Assembly: GCA_003345595.1 (NCBI GenBank)
Contig: PRDI01000016.1
Coordinates: 1 to 24,670, forward strand
Length of the DNA stretch: 24,670 bases
Source of the DNA: Candidatus Thorarchaeota archaeon
GTDB taxonomy: Archaea; Asgardarchaeota; Thorarchaeia; Thorarchaeales; Thorarchaeaceae
Direction: 5' to 3'
Under the pieces are notes generated by a model. It saw only the letters and a program-made list of their open reading frames with translations. It made no database searches and was not told the origin of the DNA. This document shows, one piece after another, positions 4,086 through 18,812 of this stretch. The position numbers and the translations under genes are program-made. The stretch's first letter is position 1, and every line of letters begins with the position of its first letter.

Positions 4086-5180
4086 GTGGCAGACATTACT
4101 GTTCAGATATCCGGACTAAGCTTCAAGACGCCAGTCATGACAGCAGCGGGCCCGATGGCACGTGACGGCGCGACGCTTCTAGAGGCTGCCAAGGGCGGAG
4201 CAGGGGGTCTTGTCGCGAAAACAGTCAGCACTAAGCCTGCCGAAGTGCCCAAGCCCAACATTGCTGCAGTAGAGAGCGGCAGACTGGGTTCAAGGAGGGG
4301 ACTGTTGAACGCAGAGCTCTGGAGCGAACTTCCCTTGGAGAGATGGCTCAAAGATGAGTACCCCCTGGCACTGAAGGCAGGTCTGCCCTTGATAGCGAGC
4401 ATCGGCTACACACCTGAGGATGTGGCAAAGATTGGGCCACTAGTCGAGAGTGCTGGAGTGAGCGCCATCGAGTTCAGCACGCACTACGTAGGCGGCCATG
4501 TTGAGATAGCCAAGGCCCTGAAACAGTGTGTTTCGATACCTGTGTTCGCAAAGCTGAGCCCTCAAGTGGACGTCGCCAAGGTCGCAAAGACGCTGGAGCC
4601 GTATGTCGATGGCATAGTGGCAATCAATACACTGGGTCCGTGTCTGAGGATTGACGTCGAAACATGCCGTCCCGTGCTGGGGAGCGACAAGGGCTATGGA
4701 TGGATGAGCGGAGCCGCTCTTAGGCCAATTGCCATGAGATGCGTTGCAGAAATCGCCCAAGCTGTGAATCTTCCAATTATAGCCTCTGGAGGTGTCATAA
4801 ACGGTCAAGATGCCATTGAGTTCTTCATGGCAGGGGCATCTGCAGTCCAGGTCTGCACTGCAGCGATACTCGAAGGGCCTGCCGTATATGGAAGAATCGC
4901 GACTGAAATCCACAAATGGCTCGACTCGCATGACTATCCATCGGTAGAATCGGTCCGAGGTGTTGCACTACCGTATCTCAAGAAGAAACGACTGCTCAGA
5001 CCGCCTGTCAGGGTCGACACAGACAGATGCACTCTGTGTGGGTTGTGCGCCAAGTCATGTGCCTACTCGGCCCTGAATTTGGACAGTCAGGCCAAGGTGC
5101 TTCACATTGATAGTGCCGCATGTGTGGGCTGCGGGCTCTGCGTTTCACTCTGCCCGGAACACGCACTCAGTAGCGAATGA
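4086..5180 (+). CDS. Dihydroorotate/dihydropyrimidine dehydrogenase (PreA-like) FMN barrel with C-terminal 2x[4Fe-4S] domain; atypical active-site loop
   Basis: PVMTAAGP, VAKT, VFAKLSP, GIVAINT, GWMSG.ALRPIA, PIIASGGV, AGASAVQVCTA; C-terminal CTLCGLC..SC and CVGCGLC..LCP. Confidence 0.85.
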   Translation: MADITVQISGLSFKTPVMTAAGPMARDGATLLEAAKGGAGGLVAKTVSTKPAEVPKPNIAAVESGRLGSRRGLLNAELWSELPLERWLKDEYPLALKAGLPLIASIGYTPEDVAKIGPLVESAGVSAIEFSTHYVGGHVEIAKALKQCVSIPVFAKLSPQVDVAKVAKTLEPYVDGIVAINTLGPCLRIDVETCRPVLGSDKGYGWMSGAALRPIAMRCVAEIAQAVNLPIIASGGVINGQDAIEFFMAGASAVQVCTAAILEGPAVYGRIATEIHKWLDSHDYPSVESVRGVALPYLKKKRLLRPPVRVDTDRCTLCGLCAKSCAYSALNLDSQAKVLHIDSAACVGCGLCVSLCPEHALSSE

Positions 5181-9813: not shown

Positions 9814-10305
9814 ATGTCGGCACTCAAGTTCGTCTTTGGAAGCCCCACGGTATGCACAGGATGCATGATCTGTGCTAACGCGTGCAGCATGTTCTACTTC
9901 AAGGTCATTAGTCCTACCCGGGCAAGAGTCCGAGTGATGCGCTTTGAGGATGGGCTCGACTTTCCCCTCTTCTGCCGCAATTGTGAAGACGCACCGTGCA
10001 AAGAGGCCTGCCCCGAGGGAGCGATTTCCAGAACCTCCAAGGGAGTGTTGACTGTAAACAACACTAGATGCAACGGGTGCGGCTCATGTGTGAAAGCATG
10101 CCCCTATGATGCAATCTCAGTTAACCCCGACAGTGGCAAGGCTATCAAATGCATTCAATGTGGTGAATGTGTGAAGAGGTGCCCTGTGGAGGCAATATGG
10201 ATCACGACCCAGAAGGAGCTCGCAGACAAAGACAAGAATGGCAGGTTGCCGCCGCTCTATGACAAGCACAAGGCGGAGCTGTATTCGAGAGGTGAGTTCT
10301 TGTGA
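9814..10305 (+). CDS. Polyferredoxin (4x[4Fe-4S]) subunit of AOR paralog 2
   Basis: CTGCMICANAC, CRNCEDAPC..ACP, CNGCGSCVKACP, KCIQCGECVKRCP; GTGA overlap with the AOR. Confidence 0.92.
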   Translation: MSALKFVFGSPTVCTGCMICANACSMFYFKVISPTRARVRVMRFEDGLDFPLFCRNCEDAPCKEACPEGAISRTSKGVLTVNNTRCNGCGSCVKACPYDAISVNPDSGKAIKCIQCGECVKRCPVEAIWITTQKELADKDKNGRLPPLYDKHKAELYSRGEFL

Positions 10306-12158
10306 TCAAAGGAGTAGGCGGTCAGGGGCTATACATAGATCTGACAAGCCAGAGTATCAAGAAGAAGCCTCTCGATGAGCAGGTCGTCAGGAAGTACCTC
10401 TTGGGTGCAGGGTTCCTGTCAAGGACTCTCTTCGATATGATTCCCGACGGGACGGACCCTCTAGGCCAAGAAAACGTTCTTGGCTTCGCTACCGGGCTCC
10501 TCACAGGTTCTATGTTTCCGCAATCGTCAAGGCATGTCATCGCTGCATTGTCCCCTCTCACTGGGATATGGGGAGAAAGTCACGCCGCGGGATTCTGGGG
10601 ACCGGAACTCAAGCTCGCCGGGTACGACTCGATCATATTCACGGGGGCCGCTCGGAAGCCCGTCTATCTCCGGATCCAGGACTCGACCGTGGAACTCCTC
10701 GATGCATCATCCGTCTGGGGTCATGATGTCTTCGAGACTGACACGATACTCAAAGCCAAACATGGTAGGAACTGCCGGGTCCTCTCCATCGGGCAGGCTG
10801 GAGAGAATCTAGTTCGTTTCGCGGCAGTTATGAATGACAGGGACAGGGCATCAGCCCGTTCGGGCATCGGCGCAGTAATGGGATCAAAGAACCTCAAAGC
10901 GATATGTGTGAGAGGAACAGGCAAGCTCGAAGTTGCAGAGCCACGAACCTACCTTAAGGAGATGGACGAGCTCCACAGGAGAATGTTAGCCAATCCTTTC
11001 ACTCCGGGCCGGGCCGAGTTTGGGACTACCAGCCTAATAGAACTCATGCAGCACATCGGCCGACTGCCTACCTACAATATGCGGCAAGGGGTGTTCGACG
11101 GCTATGACAAGATAGGCGGGCATGCCATCAACCAAGGCCATCTTATAAAACCCAGAGCTGACTGGAGCTGCCTGCAGAGATGCGGCCGCTTCACCTGTGT
11201 GTCAGAGGGGCCGTACGCCTACACAGGAGGGTCTCCCGAGTTCGAGAGCCAAGCGGCCCTCGGGTCGCGTTGCGGAAATGCCAATCTGGAGTCCGTCCTA
11301 TACAGCCATCACTTGGCCAATCAGTATGGGATGGATACGATATCTCTTGGTGGCACGATATCTTGGGCAATGGAAGCCTGGGAGGAGGGGCTCCTCACAG
11401 AAGACGACACCGGTGGTATCGATCTTGGCTGGGGCAACCATGAGTCAATCGTCAAGCTGACCAAGATGATTGCCTTCAGAGAGGGATTTGGTGACCTACT
11501 TGCTGAGGGGAGCGCAAGAGCAGCAGAGAAAATCGGACGCGGAAGCGAGAGGCTCGTCATGGCCGTGAAGAAGCAGGAGATAGCTGGGCAGGAACCCCGT
11601 GCTCAGAAGTCGATGGGGCTCGCCGCGGTCACTGCTGCAAGAGGTGCCGATCATCTCTACGGTTTTCCCGTGTTAGATGAGGTGGGGTTTGACGACGAGA
11701 TCAGAAAACGCTTCGGAGAGCAGTACCTTCCTCAGATGGCGGATAGACTCGATCCCACATACAAAGGCATCATGGTGAAAGAGTGTGAGGACTTCATGGT
11801 GGTCGTTGAGAGCGTTGGCCTTTGTAAGTATGGCACGCAGATTCCTCCCGAGTTCTACTATGCAGATATCGCACTTGGACTGAAGATACACAATGGCCTC
11901 GACATCTCTGTGCAGCAGTTGAAGACTATTGGAGAGCGGATAGTGAACCTCAACCGCTTGTTCAATGCAAGGTTCGGTATCACACGAAAGGACGATGCAT
12001 TGCCGGATAGACTGACGAAGGAGAAGGCACCAGTCGGTCCCTCAAAGGGTCAGGTGGTCGAGCTGGACAGAATGCTCGACGAGTACTACAGTTCTAGGGG
12101 CTGGAATCTGAAGACAGGTTTGCCGCTCAAGAGCACACTGAAGAAACTCGCCCTCTAG
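10302..12158 (+). CDS. aor: Aldehyde:ferredoxin oxidoreductase family large subunit, paralog 2
   Basis: SPLTG, IGQAGEN, RSGIGAVMGSKNLKA, GMDTIS, GDLLAEG, RGADH, LDEYY..RGW. The Fe-S motif reads DWSCLQRC. Confidence 0.92.
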   Translation: MIKGVGGQGLYIDLTSQSIKKKPLDEQVVRKYLLGAGFLSRTLFDMIPDGTDPLGQENVLGFATGLLTGSMFPQSSRHVIAALSPLTGIWGESHAAGFWGPELKLAGYDSIIFTGAARKPVYLRIQDSTVELLDASSVWGHDVFETDTILKAKHGRNCRVLSIGQAGENLVRFAAVMNDRDRASARSGIGAVMGSKNLKAICVRGTGKLEVAEPRTYLKEMDELHRRMLANPFTPGRAEFGTTSLIELMQHIGRLPTYNMRQGVFDGYDKIGGHAINQGHLIKPRADWSCLQRCGRFTCVSEGPYAYTGGSPEFESQAALGSRCGNANLESVLYSHHLANQYGMDTISLGGTISWAMEAWEEGLLTEDDTGGIDLGWGNHESIVKLTKMIAFREGFGDLLAEGSARAAEKIGRGSERLVMAVKKQEIAGQEPRAQKSMGLAAVTAARGADHLYGFPVLDEVGFDDEIRKRFGEQYLPQMADRLDPTYKGIMVKECEDFMVVVESVGLCKYGTQIPPEFYYADIALGLKIHNGLDISVQQLKTIGERIVNLNRLFNARFGITRKDDALPDRLTKEKAPVGPSKGQVVELDRMLDEYYSSRGWNLKTGLPLKSTLKKLAL

Positions 12159-12192
12159 CCGGCCGGACCAGTCCAAGCTCCTGACAGTGGAT

Positions 12193-12235
12193 GCGTCGGC
12201 CCCAGACTCCGGGCATGGAATCTGAGAGTTGACGC
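12193..12235. terminator. Long imperfect hairpin between convergent genes (possible bidirectional terminator or stability element)
   Basis: GCGTCGGCCCCAGACTCC-gggcat-GGAATCTGAGAGTTGACGC pairs over about 16 bp including G.U pairs. Confidence 0.45.
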
Positions 12236-12256
12236 TGCCCTGGGATTGTGGTAGTC

Positions 12257-12502
12257 CTAGTCACAGGCCGCGCAGACATTAGTCACAGTGTCTTTCACGC
12301 CATCAACTTTCCTGAGCGTGTCCACAACGAACAGGCTTAGCGCCTCTGGCGTCTTGAAGCTGGCTTTGATCAAGAGGTCATAGGCACCGTATATGATGTA
12401 GGCCTCCTCCACTCCCTCAAGCTTCTTCACGAGCTGAAGAATGCTGCGCGACTTTGATGATTCGGTCTTCGCCATGATGAATGCAGTAATCACCGTTCTC
12501 AC
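12257..12502 (-). CDS. Stand-alone Lrp/AsnC ligand-binding (RAM) domain protein
   Basis: TAFIMAK...LEGVEEAYIIYGAYDLLIK...LRKVDGVKDTVT; no HTH domain; ends CAACD. Confidence 0.87.
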   Translation of the reverse strand: MRTVITAFIMAKTESSKSRSILQLVKKLEGVEEAYIIYGAYDLLIKASFKTPEALSLFVVDTLRKVDGVKDTVTNVCAACD

Positions 12503-12631
12503 TCACCGAATGGTCAGAATCACATTGAAACCGATGGATGCCGATAAACATATTCATCATCGTGAGCATAGACCCGTGAATCTCATAAGTTGACGTACTC
12601 CTCAAACCAAGACCTTTTCTAAGCAGCAATG

Positions 12632-12637
12632 TTTAAA
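12632..12637 (+). promoter_or_regulatory. Putative TATA box of the hydrogenase operon
   Basis: TTTAAA about 45 nt upstream of TTG 12683, within the divergent lrp/mvhD intergenic region. Confidence 0.45.
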
Positions 12638-12682
12638 GAACTGTACAAGTCCCGCCTGAGATGCCAAGGGGTTACGAATGGT

Positions 12683-13150
12683 TTGACAGCCGCAGGTCAG
12701 AAATCGGCCAGCACTCAGAAACCAAAGACAAAGGTAGAAGACAGATTCGAGCCCCGCATACTGGCCTTCTGCTGCAACTGGTGTTCATATGCCGGCGCAG
12801 ACCTTGCAGGCACTAGCAGAATGCAGATGCCTCCGAATATGCGAATCATCAGGGTCAACTGCACCGGACGCATAGACCCCGTCTTTGTCCTTGAAGCACT
12901 CAACCAAGGTGCAGACGGTGTGCTCATCTCAGGCTGTCACCCAGGGGACTGCCACTATACAACCGGGAATCTGAAGATGAAGTCACGCTTCGCCCTTCTC
13001 CAGAAGATGCTTGAGGAAGCAGGCATCGAGCCAGAGAGAGTCCATCTTCAGTGGGCGAGCGCAGCAGAGGGCGACGTCTTTACCCAAGGCATCACATCCA
13101 TGGTGGAGCGGATCAAAGCTCTGGGGCCGAACCCCGTAAAGAAGGACTAA
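12683..13150 (+). CDS. mvhD: F420-non-reducing hydrogenase [2Fe-2S] subunit D (all-Cys form)
   Basis: FCCNWCSYAGADLAG, RVNCTGRID, GADGV...GCHPGDCHY..GN, WASAAEG, LGPNP. TTG 12683 preferred over ATG 12629, which overlaps the TATA box. Confidence 0.93.
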   Translation: MTAAGQKSASTQKPKTKVEDRFEPRILAFCCNWCSYAGADLAGTSRMQMPPNMRIIRVNCTGRIDPVFVLEALNQGADGVLISGCHPGDCHYTTGNLKMKSRFALLQKMLEEAGIEPERVHLQWASAAEGDVFTQGITSMVERIKALGPNPVKKD

Positions 13151-13156
13151 TGAGAG

Positions 13157-14071
13157 ATGACCAAACGCATTGCGCTGGCCCAACTGACCTCCTGCTGGGG
13201 CTGCGATCAGTCACTGGTTGATCTACATCTTGGACTACTGACTGTCCTGCCCGAGATAGAGATAGTATTCTGGCCTGCCGTCGTCGACTTCAAGCTGAAG
13301 GACCTTGAGTCAATGCCGGACCAGTCAATCCACATTGGGCTTGTTGAGGGAAGCTGCAGGACTGAGGAGGACGTCCACCTGCTCAATGTCATGAGAGAGA
13401 AGAGCAAGACCCTTGTCGCATGGGGGGTCTGTTCATGTTATGGGGGTATTCAGGGTCTCGCGAACCAGTGGAACCTCGAGGAGCTGGTCGACAGGAAGTT
13501 CATGAAGGCCGACACGGTCACCGACCCACGAGTACCCTCTGAGAACGTTCCAGTCTTTACAGAAACCGTACAGCCAAACGTCGACATCGTGGAATTCGAT
13601 GTCTAGTTGCCCGGGTGCCCTCCAACCAGCAAGAACTTGCTCGACGCACTCACAGCTCTCATCTCTGGAAAGCCCTTTGACCTTCCTGAGAAGAGCGTAT
13701 GTGATCAGTGTAGTAAGGTGAAACAGGACAAACACATCAAGGAGTTCCACAGAACTCATGAAGGGCACATCGACCCCAGCAAATGCCTTCTAGACCAGGG
13801 GTACCTGTGTCTAGGCTTCGCAACAATCGGGCTATGCGGGGCCATCTGTCCAAATGTGAACACACCATGTAAGGGATGCTTTGGACCTGTTATCAGGGTC
13901 CGTGACCATGGTGCTAAGATCATCTCAGCACTGGGTGCTGTTGCTGAGATGGAGCCTGACAAATTGAGAGAGTCATTCCCGGATCCGATTGGGTCATTCT
14001 ACTTCACCGACTACGCGGCCTCTTACCTCTCGAGAATTCGCGCGGAAACGAGGAGGAAGAAGAAGAAATGA
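13157..14071 (+). CDS. vhuG: F420-non-reducing hydrogenase small subunit G, interrupted by one in-frame TAG at 13604-13606 (codon 150 of 304)
   Basis: The two track ORFs share a frame and join as ...VEFDV*LPGCPP... Motifs SCWGC, EG, G.CSCYGGI.GLAN, PGCPP, VCDQC, CLL.QG..CLG, CGA.CP..N.PC.GC.GP are all intact. Could alternatively be a pseudogene or a base-call error. Confidence 0.85.
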
Positions 14072-15381
14072 CGGGCGAGAAGACTGTCAAGATATCGCCC
14101 GTGACCAGACTTGAGGGCCATGGCGATATCACCATCAAACTAGGCAAGGATGGAAAGGTGAAGGACGCCCAGTTCAATATCACTTCTACCCGGTTCTTCG
14201 AGAAGTTCCTTGAGGGCAGGTTTGCCGAGGAAGCACCAAGGTTTGCTCCAAGGATATGCGGTATCTGTCCCGAGCCTCACCATTTGGCTTCCGTGAAGGC
14301 TGTGGAGGATGCATGGGGCATCACTCCACCTGCTGCGGCTGTGAAGGTGAGAAGGCTTCTAATCAATGCCAAACAGCTGAGCAGTCATGCGCTTCATTTC
14401 TTTGCTCTTGCGGCTCCGGACTTCTTAGTCGGGCCTTTTGCAGAGCCTGCAAAGAGGAATCTAGTCACCATAGTCAAGGCCATGCCTGATGTTGGCAAGA
14501 TGGCTCTCCAGATGATGCAGTTTGGCCAAGAACTGGCTGCGGCGATTGGTGGAACTGCCATTCACCCTGTGACTGCCATTCCCGGGGGCATGTTGAATCC
14601 GTTCTCAGAAGAGAACAGGGACAAGTTCCTGAAACAGATAGCAGACATCAGGCAGTGGACCGCTGATACACTCACACTAGCAAAGAAGGTCTTCGATGAC
14701 TATTGGGACACCATCACCAAGCTCGGAGTGGTCCAGACGTATTATATCGGGACTCACAACAACGGGGCTCACGAGATATATGATGGCAGTATCAGAGTGA
14801 TGGATCCTGAAGGCAGCGTTGTGGCCGACATCAAGCCGAAGGACTACCGCAAGTGCTTCGCCGAGTATGTGCCTGAACACTCCTATGCCACGCATGTGTA
14901 CTACAAACCAGTGGGATACCCAGACGGAGTCTGGCGGGCGGGCACTCTTGCACGGACCAACGTTGTAGACAAGATGGCTACACCTCTGGCTCAAGAGGCA
15001 TTTGAAGAGATGAGAAACAGACTCGGCCATCCCATTCACGCAACATTCGCATATCATTGGGCCCGGATCGTGGAACTTGTCCAAGCGATGGAGGAGCTCG
15101 AGATCCTGTTGAAGGACCCTCAGATTGTGAGCAAGGACATCAAGTTGTCAGTGGTCCAGCCGAAGAAGGGTGATGGTGTAGGATGTGTTGAAGCACCGCG
15201 AGGAACACTCATCCATCATTACTGGACTGACGAACAAGGGATCATCACAAAGGCAAACATGATAGTCGCCACAAACAACAATGTCGGCGGCATCGAGAAG
15301 ACTCTGATGGAAGTAGCCAAGCAGGTCTTCGAACAAAGGGCTCACCAGAAACTGAAATTGCCTAAACCTATGATAGGCTAG
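14068..15381 (+). CDS. vhuA: [NiFe(Se)] hydrogenase group 3c large subunit lacking the C-terminal L2 motif (VhuA-type)
   Basis: TRLEGHG, RFFEKFLEGR, L1 motif RICGICPEPH, HALHF, EAPRGTLIHHY, VAT.NN; ends KPMIG* without DPCxxC. ATGA overlap with vhuG. Confidence 0.93.
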   Translation: MTGEKTVKISPVTRLEGHGDITIKLGKDGKVKDAQFNITSTRFFEKFLEGRFAEEAPRFAPRICGICPEPHHLASVKAVEDAWGITPPAAAVKVRRLLINAKQLSSHALHFFALAAPDFLVGPFAEPAKRNLVTIVKAMPDVGKMALQMMQFGQELAAAIGGTAIHPVTAIPGGMLNPFSEENRDKFLKQIADIRQWTADTLTLAKKVFDDYWDTITKLGVVQTYYIGTHNNGAHEIYDGSIRVMDPEGSVVADIKPKDYRKCFAEYVPEHSYATHVYYKPVGYPDGVWRAGTLARTNVVDKMATPLAQEAFEEMRNRLGHPIHATFAYHWARIVELVQAMEELEILLKDPQIVSKDIKLSVVQPKKGDGVGCVEAPRGTLIHHYWTDEQGIITKANMIVATNNNVGGIEKTLMEVAKQVFEQRAHQKLKLPKPMIG

Positions 15382-15393
15382 GAGAGAACTAAG

Positions 15394-15546
15394 ATGACAG
15401 ACGAAATACCTGAAGGCGTACTGAACCTCCTTGAGATGGTAGTACGCTGCTACGACTGCTGACTCTCTTGCGCCGCTCACATCGTCATTGTGGACGAAGA
15501 GGGGCGCGAGATAGCAAGGAGAGAGCTCGTGACCAGCAGCGAATGA
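15394..15546 (+). CDS. vhuU: VhuU selenopeptide (50 aa; Sec from TGA 15460-15462) carrying the hydrogenase L2 Ni-ligand motif
   Basis: Not in the ORF track. MTDEIPEGVLNLLEMVVRCYDC[U]LSCAAHIVIVDEEGREIARRELVTSSE*. The TGA sits at the Ni-ligating Cys/Sec position; SD-like GGAG at 15381-15384; supplies the motif missing from vhuA. Confidence 0.92.
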
Positions 15547-15580
15547 TGGCACAGTCACAAACTACTGCACTGCGCCTGAC
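15543..15580 (+). promoter_or_regulatory. Eukaryote-like SECIS element for vhuU
   Basis: AUGA-U-GGCACAGUCA-CAAACUAC-UG(C)ACUGCGCC-UGAC: UGAN/NGAN core, roughly 9-10 bp upper helix, apical AAA 12 nt after AUGA. Lower helix is weak. Confidence 0.8.
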
Positions 15581-15635
15581 AGCCCTTGCAATGGGCTTGC
15601 CGGTCTAGGCTCTCCCTCCATCTCTGCTGTCCAAT

Positions 15636-18539
15636 CTACTCAAGGAAGAGAGATACCCTGCCAGGAAGAGCAAAATGCGCCTTCCCCTGGGGGTCACTCT
15701 GCGGCTTTTCAGCAGACTGAATCACTATCTCCAGACCCAGTTCCGACTTCAAGTACTCAACTGAGCTCTGTAGTGTCACGGTTTCGTCCTTCGCGCTTGC
15801 GGAGTAGCCCCAGAGTCCGTTCTCTTTTGCCATTCGGTCCACAATCATCTTGACCTCTTTGCCATATTGTCTGAAGCTGGGATTTGACATCAGGTGTTTC
15901 ATGATGTCACCGACAATCATCGGCAGATTGGCCTGTCGGACGCTGTCCATCGCATCGAACATCCATTGAGGTGCCACATAGATGTTTACTCTCTTCGGAG
16001 CCTTCTCCTTCAGAAGCTTCGAGATCTCGCGCACATCACGTATCGTTGCTTCGACCACGTCTTGCGCTCGTTCTGCCGGCAGATCAATCATCTTCTTGTC
16101 CGCTTTGGGCCATGGCGCCAGAGAAACATACCCTTCGTGCTTCATCTTCGACCACATCTCTTCGCAGATGTGAGGAGCTATGGGGGTGACGAGACGGACC
16201 CAGATGTCGCATGCGTATGCCATGGCAGAGTCACGTTCTTCCTTCGGCACCTCAGGGCGGTCCACGTACTGGCTGACAATACGCTGCATCTCTGAAGTTA
16301 CAAGCAATGCGTAATCCCTCAGCTTGAAGCTGTCAAAGCTCTCCGTACTGTCTTCAATCAGCGAGTTGACCTTGGACAGAAACCATCGAGTCATCATGGC
16401 AGGCCTGTCTTTCTTGGTGTACGCCTTAGGAGTCTTTGTCGCATACTTCTTGACTGTTTCAATGAACTGAGCAATCCTGTTCTTGACTACAGGTACGTCC
16501 CTCTCACGCCAGTCCATGAGAGTGGCAGGCTCGGCGGCCGAAATGACGTATGTACGATACACGTCGGCACCATATTTCTTCGGGATTTCCACGAGTGGGA
16601 TGACATTGCCCTTGCTCTTTGACATCTTCATCCCTTCCATGTTCACGTGCTCGTTCAGGCTGATACATTTCAGCCAGTGCTTTCTCGGGAATATCGCAAC
16701 ATGGTGAAAGATGGCGAAGCTCAGATGGTTCGATATGTGCGATGGTGCTGTATGTCGCTGGTCGTTCGGATACCAATAGAGGAACTCGTCGTGCATTGAC
16801 CTCAGGAGATCAATGCTCACACCTGTTTCTTCTGAAACCTTCTTCGGGTCACCCTTGCTCAGGAACACGTAGTCAAAGAATCTCAATGTCAGTTGTTCGG
16901 GCTTCAGCTTATTCCCGGTTATCTTATGGGCTATGGTGTAGAATGCCATGTAGATCGTAGAGTCGGACAGTGATTCGATGATCCACTCCTTATCAAACGG
17001 CAGACGAGTACCGATTCCCCGCTTTCTCGCGCAGGGCCTTTGGGTCAGCCAGTCAAATGTGGCCTCAAAGAGGTTCCTGAAGGTGTTCGGCAATATCTGC
17101 ATTGAGTCTAATGCACTGCGCGCCAAGTCCTTCCAGCCCGGACTCATGTAGTCCAAGAACCACTGTCCGGCGAACACGCCGACCTGGACATCTGTTCCAC
17201 ATTTGCAGACTACAGGTCTCCTATCGGGCTCGTAGAACACATCAACACGATTGTTTGACCTCATCCATTTGACGACATCGTCTTTGACTTCCTTGATTGC
17301 CCTGCCAGAGAATTGGCCACAGTTGTTTCTCATCACACCCTCGTAGAACTCAGCCTTGTAGATCTCCTGTGTGGCCTCTTCGAGCTCTTCAGCCTCTGCC
17401 TGTGACTTGATACCCCTCTTTTCGACTGTATCTTTGGCTGGAAACTCACTGTATCCTTTGATGTCGATCATGCCGATAATCTTGATACTCCGGACGTCTT
17501 CAGGCGAAATCCCGTATTGCTCTAGGCCAGAGGGATTCTCCCAGAGATCACGGAGTGCAACATAGTCGAACGGTGCATGGCCGGGAACGGAGTAGACCAC
17601 ACCGGTTGCATTCTGTGGGTCCACGAAGTCGGCTGGCAGGATTGGAATCTCATGCTCGTCATGAACCGCCCGAAACTTCTTGCCGACTATCTTGGCCCCG
17701 GAAAACGACTCAATCACGTCTACCTTCTTGGCTTGCAGTCTTAGCTTCTCGACTGCTGCAGATGAGATGACCCACTTTTCGCCGTCGACTCGGGCCCAGA
17801 CGTAGGTGGCATGGGGATTGATCCACATGTTTGTGACGCCGAATATGGTTTCAGGCCGCAGTGTTGCAGGGACTATGAATCCGTCCTCGAACCCGAACTT
17901 GATTGCCGTGAACTCCTTGATCTTGGCGTCCTCGCCCTTCAGCAGGTCGTCCTCTCCAACGGGATTGCCATCATGGGGACAGTACAGCAGTGGATAGGCG
18001 CCCTGTCGAATGTATCCCTTGTCCATCAACTTCTGATACTGCCATGTCACGAACATGTTGTAGATCTTGTCACCGGTCGTGAACTTCCTGCGCCAGTCAA
18101 TGCTGTAACCAAGGGCCTTGAAGTCGGCAGAGATGGCGTCGGCAAAGAACTTGGCCGTTACCCACGGGTCTGTGAACTTCCGCAGTTGTTCCTCGACTTC
18201 CTCCTCCGTCTTCAGATACAGTCGCAGGTCTCGTTTGTACTGCTCAATCGCATCATGATCGCCCTCTTTGATTCTCTCCACCATTCCGAGGATTGGTGTG
18301 CCGGTCATGTGTGAGGCCATTGGAAACAGTACATTGTATCCCCTCATCCGTCTGTAACGGGCTATCAGATCCCCCACAGTGTACGTCCTGCCATGGCCGA
18401 TGTGCAAGGCACCATTTGTGTATGGGTATGGTACGGTCAGGAAGAACTTGGGCTTGTTGGAGTCAGGGTCTGCCTCGAAGATCTTGTCCCTTTCCCAACG
18501 CCTTTGCCATTTCCTCTCAATCTCGGCGTATTCACTCAT
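15636..18539 (-). CDS. leuS: Leucine--tRNA ligase (archaeal/eukaryotic type)
   Basis: PYPYTNGALHIGH, DWRRKFTT, ATLRPETIFGVTN, SVPGHAPFDY, IESLSDSTIYMA, KMSKSKGN. ATG 18539 (MSEYAEIERKWQ). Confidence 0.97.
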   Translation of the reverse strand: MSEYAEIERKWQRRWERDKIFEADPDSNKPKFFLTVPYPYTNGALHIGHGRTYTVGDLIARYRRMRGYNVLFPMASHMTGTPILGMVERIKEGDHDAIEQYKRDLRLYLKTEEEVEEQLRKFTDPWVTAKFFADAISADFKALGYSIDWRRKFTTGDKIYNMFVTWQYQKLMDKGYIRQGAYPLLYCPHDGNPVGEDDLLKGEDAKIKEFTAIKFGFEDGFIVPATLRPETIFGVTNMWINPHATYVWARVDGEKWVISSAAVEKLRLQAKKVDVIESFSGAKIVGKKFRAVHDEHEIPILPADFVDPQNATGVVYSVPGHAPFDYVALRDLWENPSGLEQYGISPEDVRSIKIIGMIDIKGYSEFPAKDTVEKRGIKSQAEAEELEEATQEIYKAEFYEGVMRNNCGQFSGRAIKEVKDDVVKWMRSNNRVDVFYEPDRRPVVCKCGTDVQVGVFAGQWFLDYMSPGWKDLARSALDSMQILPNTFRNLFEATFDWLTQRPCARKRGIGTRLPFDKEWIIESLSDSTIYMAFYTIAHKITGNKLKPEQLTLRFFDYVFLSKGDPKKVSEETGVSIDLLRSMHDEFLYWYPNDQRHTAPSHISNHLSFAIFHHVAIFPRKHWLKCISLNEHVNMEGMKMSKSKGNVIPLVEIPKKYGADVYRTYVISAAEPATLMDWRERDVPVVKNRIAQFIETVKKYATKTPKAYTKKDRPAMMTRWFLSKVNSLIEDSTESFDSFKLRDYALLVTSEMQRIVSQYVDRPEVPKEERDSAMAYACDIWVRLVTPIAPHICEEMWSKMKHEGYVSLAPWPKADKKMIDLPAERAQDVVEATIRDVREISKLLKEKAPKRVNIYVAPQWMFDAMDSVRQANLPMIVGDIMKHLMSNPSFRQYGKEVKMIVDRMAKENGLWGYSASAKDETVTLQSSVEYLKSELGLEIVIQSAEKPQSDPQGKAHFALPGRVSLFLE

Positions 18540-18812
18540 ATCTGGAGGCCTCAATAGACGTTGAATCACTCGAGGAGCCGGATGCGGTATCTGCTATAAA
18601 GGACTCGAAGAAAAAGCAAATGTCACGGACAGAGAACACAATCCATCCTTGGCTCACTCTTGCATCCAGGCTCTTGGACCACCTAATAGAGCTTTGGATG
18701 AATCGAGTTGACCTTCGCGCTATTATTCGAAACATACGTGCCTTCAAATGGCCTGCCGTGCACTAGGTCGGCATGAATAGAGTGAAAAAGGCTTGAATGG
18801 GGCAACGCGCTC

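Follow-up and report, generated by a model that had tools for sequence, protein, structure and literature searches.

How could one short gene have its first UGA codon read as selenocysteine (Sec) and its second, 84 nt further on, as a stop? The gene that raises this question is vhuU, the last member of a vhuD-vhuG-vhuA-vhuU hydrogenase cluster on the plus strand of the window, by which we mean the whole 24,670-nt stretch of DNA analyzed here.

12629-13150, plus strand: vhuD/mvhD-like gene
13157-14071, plus strand: vhuG, hydrogenase small subunit
14068-15381, plus strand: vhuA, hydrogenase large subunit
15394-15546, plus strand: vhuU, 50 codons
15460-15462, plus strand: Sec codon UGA of vhuU, 84 nt 5' of the stop UGA at 15544-15546

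The identification of vhuU rests on its translation, its position 3' of vhuA, and 36 Asgard homologues with the same motif. The large subunit of this [NiFeSe] hydrogenase is split, and vhuU supplies its C-terminal piece, with the motif YDCULSCAAH; the translation starts MTDEIPEGVLNLLEMVVRCYDCULSCAAH... (U = UGA at 15460-15462), with Sec sitting in DCULSCAAH. An earlier reading of the sequence alone, the original prediction, had placed a eukaryote-type Sec insertion (SECIS) element at the end of this gene, about 80 nt downstream of the Sec codon (84 nt as measured here), and had proposed an Asgard origin. The latter agrees with the closest relatives of VhuA among 185,579 species genomes: a MAG at 96% identity is followed by MAGs labelled Candidatus Thorarchaeota, among others (82 to 63%), by Atabeyarchaeia (about 60%), and by Loki-type Promethearchaeota (about 58%), the nearest relatives thus being Thorarchaeota MAGs.

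Several features of the surrounding DNA deserve mention in their own right. An in-frame TAG at 13604-13606 (FDV*LPGCPP) divides vhuG into two ORFs; the same position is ATG (Met) in the 96%-identical relative L001, a Tyr codon in a paralogous cluster of the same genome, and a codon for L, R, P, Y, or F in other relatives. A search of the genome for PylS gave none. The TAG may have arisen by nonsense mutation as the paralog decays, may be an error of assembly, or may be read through; because vhuG carries it, the window's copy of the hydrogenase operon may not be fully functional. Contigs from four runs of wetland DNA leave out 13591-13636, the region of the TAG, and have no listed difference across 15528-15608, at the end of vhuU. 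Upstream, 470 nt without a long ORF (12159-12628) separate an aldehyde:ferredoxin oxidoreductase gene (10302-12158) from vhuD. Downstream, a convergent leucyl-tRNA synthetase (LeuRS) gene occupies 15636-18569 on the minus strand, its stop about 30 nt from the end of the vhuU element, and the ends of the vhuU and LeuRS transcripts must therefore fall within a very short common spacer (15606-15636).

The hairpin in question takes in the vhuU stop codon and has the following parts.

15543-15546, plus strand: AUGA, 5' half of the core; U15544-G-A15546 is the vhuU stop, invariant in 37/37 sequences
15547-15555, plus strand: helix II (upper stem), 5' strand UGGCACAGU, compensatory changes in 9/9 pairs
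15556-15568, plus strand: apical loop CACAAACUACUGC, 13 nt, with A15559 and A15560 invariant (columns A48 and A49 of alignment A1)
15569-15577, plus strand: helix II, 3' strand ACUGCGCCU, covariation in both alignments
15578-15579, plus strand: GA, 3' half of the core, with A15579 invariant

All of the core, stem, and loop letters are in place at the coordinates originally given. The 3' side of the core reads U15577-G-A15579-C, and its GA (15578-15579) would make sheared pairs with G15545 and A15546. In helix II, G15548 to U15555 pair with A15569 to C15576, with a single mismatch at A15551.C15573; U15547.U15577 adjoins the G.A pairs, giving the window's stem two nonstandard positions (U.U and A.C). 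The AAA of the apical loop lies at 15559-15561, 12 nt past the AUGA. Two further pairs that had been drawn at the top of the stem (C15556-G15567 and A15557-U15566, with C15568 bulged) do form in a single-sequence fold, and the covariation described below covers the nine-position stem only. Folded on its own, as a single sequence by minimum energy, the window's element is not unusually stable (z = -1.55).

The comparative evidence is far more telling. We compared the window with 36 fetched Asgard loci from MAGs labelled Thor-, Loki-, and Atabeyarchaeia, giving 37 Sec-type vhuU genes, and in every one of them the stop is the UGA of an A-UGA that is followed by the stem, as had been proposed for the window alone. 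Sec UGA and stop UGA are 84 nt apart in 36 of these 37 genes, the window's included. The structure is strictly tied to Sec-type genes: the only Cys-type vhuU in the set (L041, labelled Odinarchaeota, with the motif DCCLSCSAH) ends in a TAA stop and has neither stem nor SECIS. Another member of the set, L034, has an in-frame TAA within an otherwise normal Sec-type vhuU, which reflects either a pseudogene or a sequencing error.

Checked across these related 3' regions, the element covaries. All nine helix II pairs show two-sided changes, 92% of alignment cells are paired, and the covariation score of 0.495 compares with 0.243 for shuffles, none of 500 of which reaches the observed value; sliding the partner strand by 1 to 3 columns drops the score to 0.15 or less. 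The covariation was repeated on a second alignment, and de novo prediction by RNAalifold agrees. Invariant in the 37 sequences are the AUGA, the AA of the loop (15559-15560), and the 3' A (15579), which are hallmarks of eukaryotic and Asgard SECIS as these are described in PMC4989117 and PMC11227280. Just 5' of the invariant 3' A, the Thor clade has G and most of the Loki clade A, and apical loops of the Thor clade measure 10 to 14 nt. The 3' UGA at 15577-15579, to which attention had been drawn as lying in frame, is indeed in frame with the stop, 33 nt away. The corresponding position is CGA in the paralogous vhuU, other Thor relatives are spaced differently, and the Loki clade has AA; the frame of this UGA is coincidental, and it has no conserved role.

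Searches of the genome (2.7 Mb, in an assembly that is 83% complete) gave results that depended strongly on the descriptor. A loose pattern ([AG]UGA, 9 bp, 8 to 20 nt, [GA]A) has 511 matches genome-wide and is uninformative by itself; filtering left 89, of which those at selD and at an ORF on C115 were the only ones taken further as real elements. The covariance model R1, in contrast to the loose pattern, has two matches at an E value of 0.01 or less in the whole genome, both at vhuU stops, and the second of these (C125:17218-17261) lay outside its training set. Applied to the genomes of five relatives, R1 found vhuU and its paralogs only and no other gene family. One of the compared loci, L009, has at 4231-4308 a second, degenerate vhuU 3' end with a SECIS (37.8 bits with model R2), some 1.2 kb further downstream than the genuine 3' end; between them lies an unrelated ORF (MTDIEETLRIVCSYLNENDMKYVIVGG...), an arrangement that resembles duplication around an inserted gene.

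Similar elements had also been expected at the genome's other selenoprotein genes, and they were found at the paralogous vhuU, at selD, and at the ORF on C115.

C125:14182-17282 (L082, L093, L098): paralogous vhuD-vhuG-vhuA-vhuU cluster with its own Sec UGA, AUGA stop, and SECIS
C78:1518-2790 (L085): selD, with Sec in GUSCK (UGA at 1698) and a stop UGA at 2688
C115, AUGA at 18391, minus strand: CSSU (CxxU) selenoprotein ORF of 298 codons, with Sec 732 nt before the stop
C89:1-2602, minus strand: adjoining genes for SepSecS and EFsec (selB), on one short contig

The element of the paralogous vhuU (C125:17218-17261) has the strands AGGCGCGGU/ACUGCGCUC. In selD the stop UGA lies inside a GUGA core, 990 nt downstream of the Sec codon; the arm is type II-like (an ACAA bulge plus a ministem), and the kink turn is standard-looking (UCC|CGU|GA...GA|GGA). 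On C115 the UGA that ends the ORF lies in an AUGA, past which stand a fully paired stem of 9 bp with a loop of 13 nt (GCAAAGCUGAAAG) and then GA; the kink turn again looks standard (GGCC|GAU|GA...GA|GGCC). The stop therefore lies inside the core in 4/4 recognized selenoprotein genes, at Sec-to-core distances of 84, 84, 732, and 990 nt. None of the five genes with an MvhD/VhuD domain in this genome has an in-frame stop. For tRNA-Sec, an RF01852 search of the 83%-complete assembly found nothing; a 93-nt ARAGORN call on C56 was rejected as an ordinary intron-containing tRNA. A search of the same assembly for an SBP2-like L7Ae paralog found none, the single L7Ae-domain gene (on C75) encoding 123 amino acids.

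Taken together, these comparisons make it very probable that the hairpin is the SECIS of the vhuU mRNA of a Thorarchaeota-like Asgard archaeon and that it is a member of the eukaryote-like type I class already published for Asgard archaea. The AUGA and 3' GA would then come together as a kink-turn-like core below the nine-position stem. For a ribosome standing at the first UGA (15460-15462), the element would lie some 70 to 145 nt downstream, free to fold, and once folded it would act with EFsec-Sec-tRNA(Sec) and a putative binding factor to have that UGA read as Sec. About nine codons ahead of the second UGA, the ribosome would start to unwind a lower helix (helix I, below) whose 5' strand consists of the last vhuU codons, and by the time the second UGA occupied the A site, the ribosome would enclose the core together with the 5' half of helix II. 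This UGA, itself a piece of the core, would be decoded with no SECIS left, and release factor would terminate. From this geometry we infer that the second UGA stands too near the SECIS for recoding, the SECIS being unfolded at the moment of decoding.

Other readings of the same structure fare less well. The two GC-rich hairpins stand at the extreme 3' end of the gene, 28 nt from the convergent LeuRS gene, and might form a general mRNA 3'-end element for stability or termination that is merely 3' of vhuU, with Sec insertion directed otherwise. We consider this highly improbable, given that the hairpin accompanies every Sec-type gene (37/37) and not the Cys-type one (0/1), that its invariant letters are SECIS hallmarks and not terminator features, and that the same core recurs 3' of selD and of the C115 gene. 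Nor was an alternative SECIS found: RNAalifold, run on 27 sequences, predicted 0 pairs over the 84 nt that separate the two UGAs, and this lack of conserved pairing argues against a bacterial-type SECIS; a search of 15441-15760 for a methanogen-type GAA_A element gave no candidate. Slightly less probable again is that the structure mainly governs how ribosomes terminate or pause where vhuU ends, for instance so as to time hydrogenase maturation, and not Sec insertion. The stop and last codons are embedded in helices and the Sec and stop codons keep a fixed spacing of 84 nt, as this would predict, but conserved protein length explains the fixed spacing, the same core is found at 990 and 732 nt in other selenoprotein genes, and the Cys-type homologue lacks the element. 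A chance match to a loose motif, to which the 511 pattern matches per genome and the unremarkable fold might seem to point, is scarcely credible at all: the single fold and the loose motif carry no significance by themselves, but covariation over 37 sequences and genome-wide covariance-model matches only at vhuU stops rule it out.

Below the SECIS arm, the element extends in both directions from the core and takes in part of the coding sequence.

15531-15538, plus strand: helix I, 5' strand GACCAGCA, the last vhuU codons, pairing with 15598-15605
15581-15597, plus strand: second hairpin, AGCCC / UUGCAAU / GGGCU, between the 3' GA and the helix I 3' strand
15598-15605, plus strand: helix I, 3' strand UGCCGGUC, indicated by covariation and RNAalifold

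Helix I shows two-sided changes in seven of nine aligned pairs, with 84.5% of cells paired in 36 sequences. A paired fraction of 84 to 85% is conservative, because MAFFT shifted the helix I 3' strand in seven Thor rows, which a covariance-model realignment (A5) left unmoved. Where the coding strand changes synonymously at third positions, the downstream strand changes to match: GGC/GCC becomes GGU/ACC in L014 and L036, U-A becomes A-U in L034 and C-G in L027, and A-U becomes G-C in L003. The helix is a perfect 8 bp in the paralogous vhuU of the same genome (GACCAGCA/UGCUGGUC) and is also present in the paralogs L105 and L106, which were absent from the training set of every model. Unaided, RNAalifold predicts helix I, helix II, and the second hairpin. 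The second hairpin was picked out in 38/38 vhuU elements (28 distinct sequences) with stem sequences that differ among clades, a count that comes from a hairpin-seeking parser and is partly circular; neither MAFFT nor the model places it in a single register, and its statistical support is therefore weaker than that of helix I.

The resulting topology has the covarying helix I on one side of the core and a third helix, the second hairpin, leaving the nonbulged strand beside the tandem G.A pairs, which is how a k-junction is defined (PMC10573300). It is possible, and we put it forward tentatively, that the vhuU SECIS is a k-junction-type three-way junction that each terminating ribosome dismantles. 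Its parts would be the coding helix I, the SECIS arm on the G.A core, and the second hairpin off the nonbulged strand. With helix I partly in coding sequence, any ribosome that terminates would on this model take the element apart, which would force termination at the core UGA and would leave Sec insertion briefly off for the next ribosome, 84 nt behind. The hairpin is perhaps general in Thor-type SECIS, since the selD and C115 elements also have a 3'-side hairpin inside the closing helix; in selD it has the loop CGCGA and lies within a 7-bp helix (GAGACCG/CGGUCUC). Known k-junctions (Wang et al. 2014, PMC4005666; Li et al. 2023, PMC10573300) likewise combine tandem G.A/A.G pairs with a three-way junction whose third helix branches off the nonbulged strand, opposite the loop. 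They differ in having a 3-nt 5' linker, against 5 to 6 nt in the vhuU element, and in being known from TPP riboswitches and not from recoding signals; the likeness comes from predicted pairing only. The main texts of PMC4989117 and PMC11227280 make no mention of a second hairpin or junction, and in the literature on archaea we found no open paper that joins SECIS with a three-way junction. Relative to those main texts, the combination of a coding-strand helix I and a second hairpin into a three-way junction may thus be new, in a modest way, and this reading could guide structure probing and a search for the SECIS-binding factor.

How does the element compare with known SECIS? The original description of it as eukaryote-type holds in the sense of the eukaryote-like kind known from Lokiarchaeota and fails for the Rfam eukaryotic model. 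Rfam found no SECIS family in the whole window at the gathering score, and with RF00031 included, a search of 15380-15700 at E values up to 10 returned noise matches only and no SECIS. This accords with the report, in PMC11227280, that SECISearch3 detects nothing in Asgard genes. Eukaryotic SECIS (RF00031) and the vhuU element share AUGA_AA_GA and the succession of helix I, internal loop, core, helix II, and apical loop, and both work at a distance from the 3' end, as is predicted for the latter. The vhuU element has a shorter upper stem, overlaps coding sequence, and carries an extra hairpin on its 3' side; eukaryotic SECIS is an SBP2-bound kink-turn, whereas here there is neither an Rfam match nor an SBP2-like protein among those found. 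Euryarchaeal SECIS (Methanococcus/Methanopyrus) also lie at the 3' end, and the 88-nt distance from UGA to SECIS in Methanococcus maripaludis fruA (PMC9622424) is similar to the 84 nt of vhuU, but the vhuU element lacks their GAA_A bulge and three G-C pairs.

Its closest counterparts are in Asgard archaea. The structure, the overlap of stop and AUGA, and the too-close-to-recode explanation are already described in PMC4989117 and PMC11227280: for VhuU.1, Mariotti et al. (2016; PMC4989117) report that the AUGA doubles as the stop and explain this by a minimal distance, and according to Huang, Xiao, and Zhang (2024; PMC11227280), whose type I model comes from a study of more than 400 Asgard genomes, Thorarchaeia included, stop UGAs frequently overlap AUGA. 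As far as sequence comparison can establish it, the vhuU element is confirmed as a real, conserved SECIS and one more example of this published class. Asgard SECIS have been proposed as a link between archaeal and eukaryotic selenocysteine insertion, and the vhuU locus offers a clean further example. Two points are incremental and leave the published picture unchanged: the stop lies inside AUGA in 37/37 Sec-type vhuU across several Asgard classes, beyond a single Loki gene, and the closing helix of the element covaries and is partly coding sequence.

In the lokiSECIS of Mariotti et al., AUGA precedes a stem of 9 bp, the loop is A-rich and 11 nt long, and GA follows the stem (AA in the case of VhuU). 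The window's element resembles that of VhuU.1 in having AUGA before a nine-position stem, an A-rich loop, [G/A]A, and a location at the very end of a selenoprotein gene. It departs from the strict lokiSECIS shape (9-bp stem and 11-nt loop AAAAA...G) with its 13-nt loop (CACAAACUACUGC, starting CACAAAC), has GA where Loki VhuU has AA in the 3' core, and comes from a host in a Thorarchaeota-like clade. The type I model of PMC11227280 is wider: a core of GA_[G/A]A, an upper stem of 7 to 15 bp with at most two mismatches, and a loop of 8 to 20 nt, with a lower stem of [U/C]GG_C[C/U][A/G] for frhA/vhuU. Against it, the window has AUGA (15543-15546) and GA (15578-15579) for [A/G]UGA ... [G/A]A, nine stem positions with two mismatches (U.U and A.C), and a 13-nt loop with unpaired adenines (A15559 and A15560) near its 5' side. 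It also stands at the end of a vhuU whose frame contains a Sec UGA, and the genome encodes SelD(Sec), SepSecS, and EFsec. The likeness to type I frhA/VhuU elements of Thorarchaeia extends from core, stem, and loop to the lower stem, which fits the published pattern. The differences are that the commonest Thor frhA loop starts G[U/G]AAA and the window's CACAAA, and that the hairpin inside the lower internal loop belongs to the window's element and is absent from the main text of that study. The window's element belongs to the broader Asgard class and not to the narrow Loki form.
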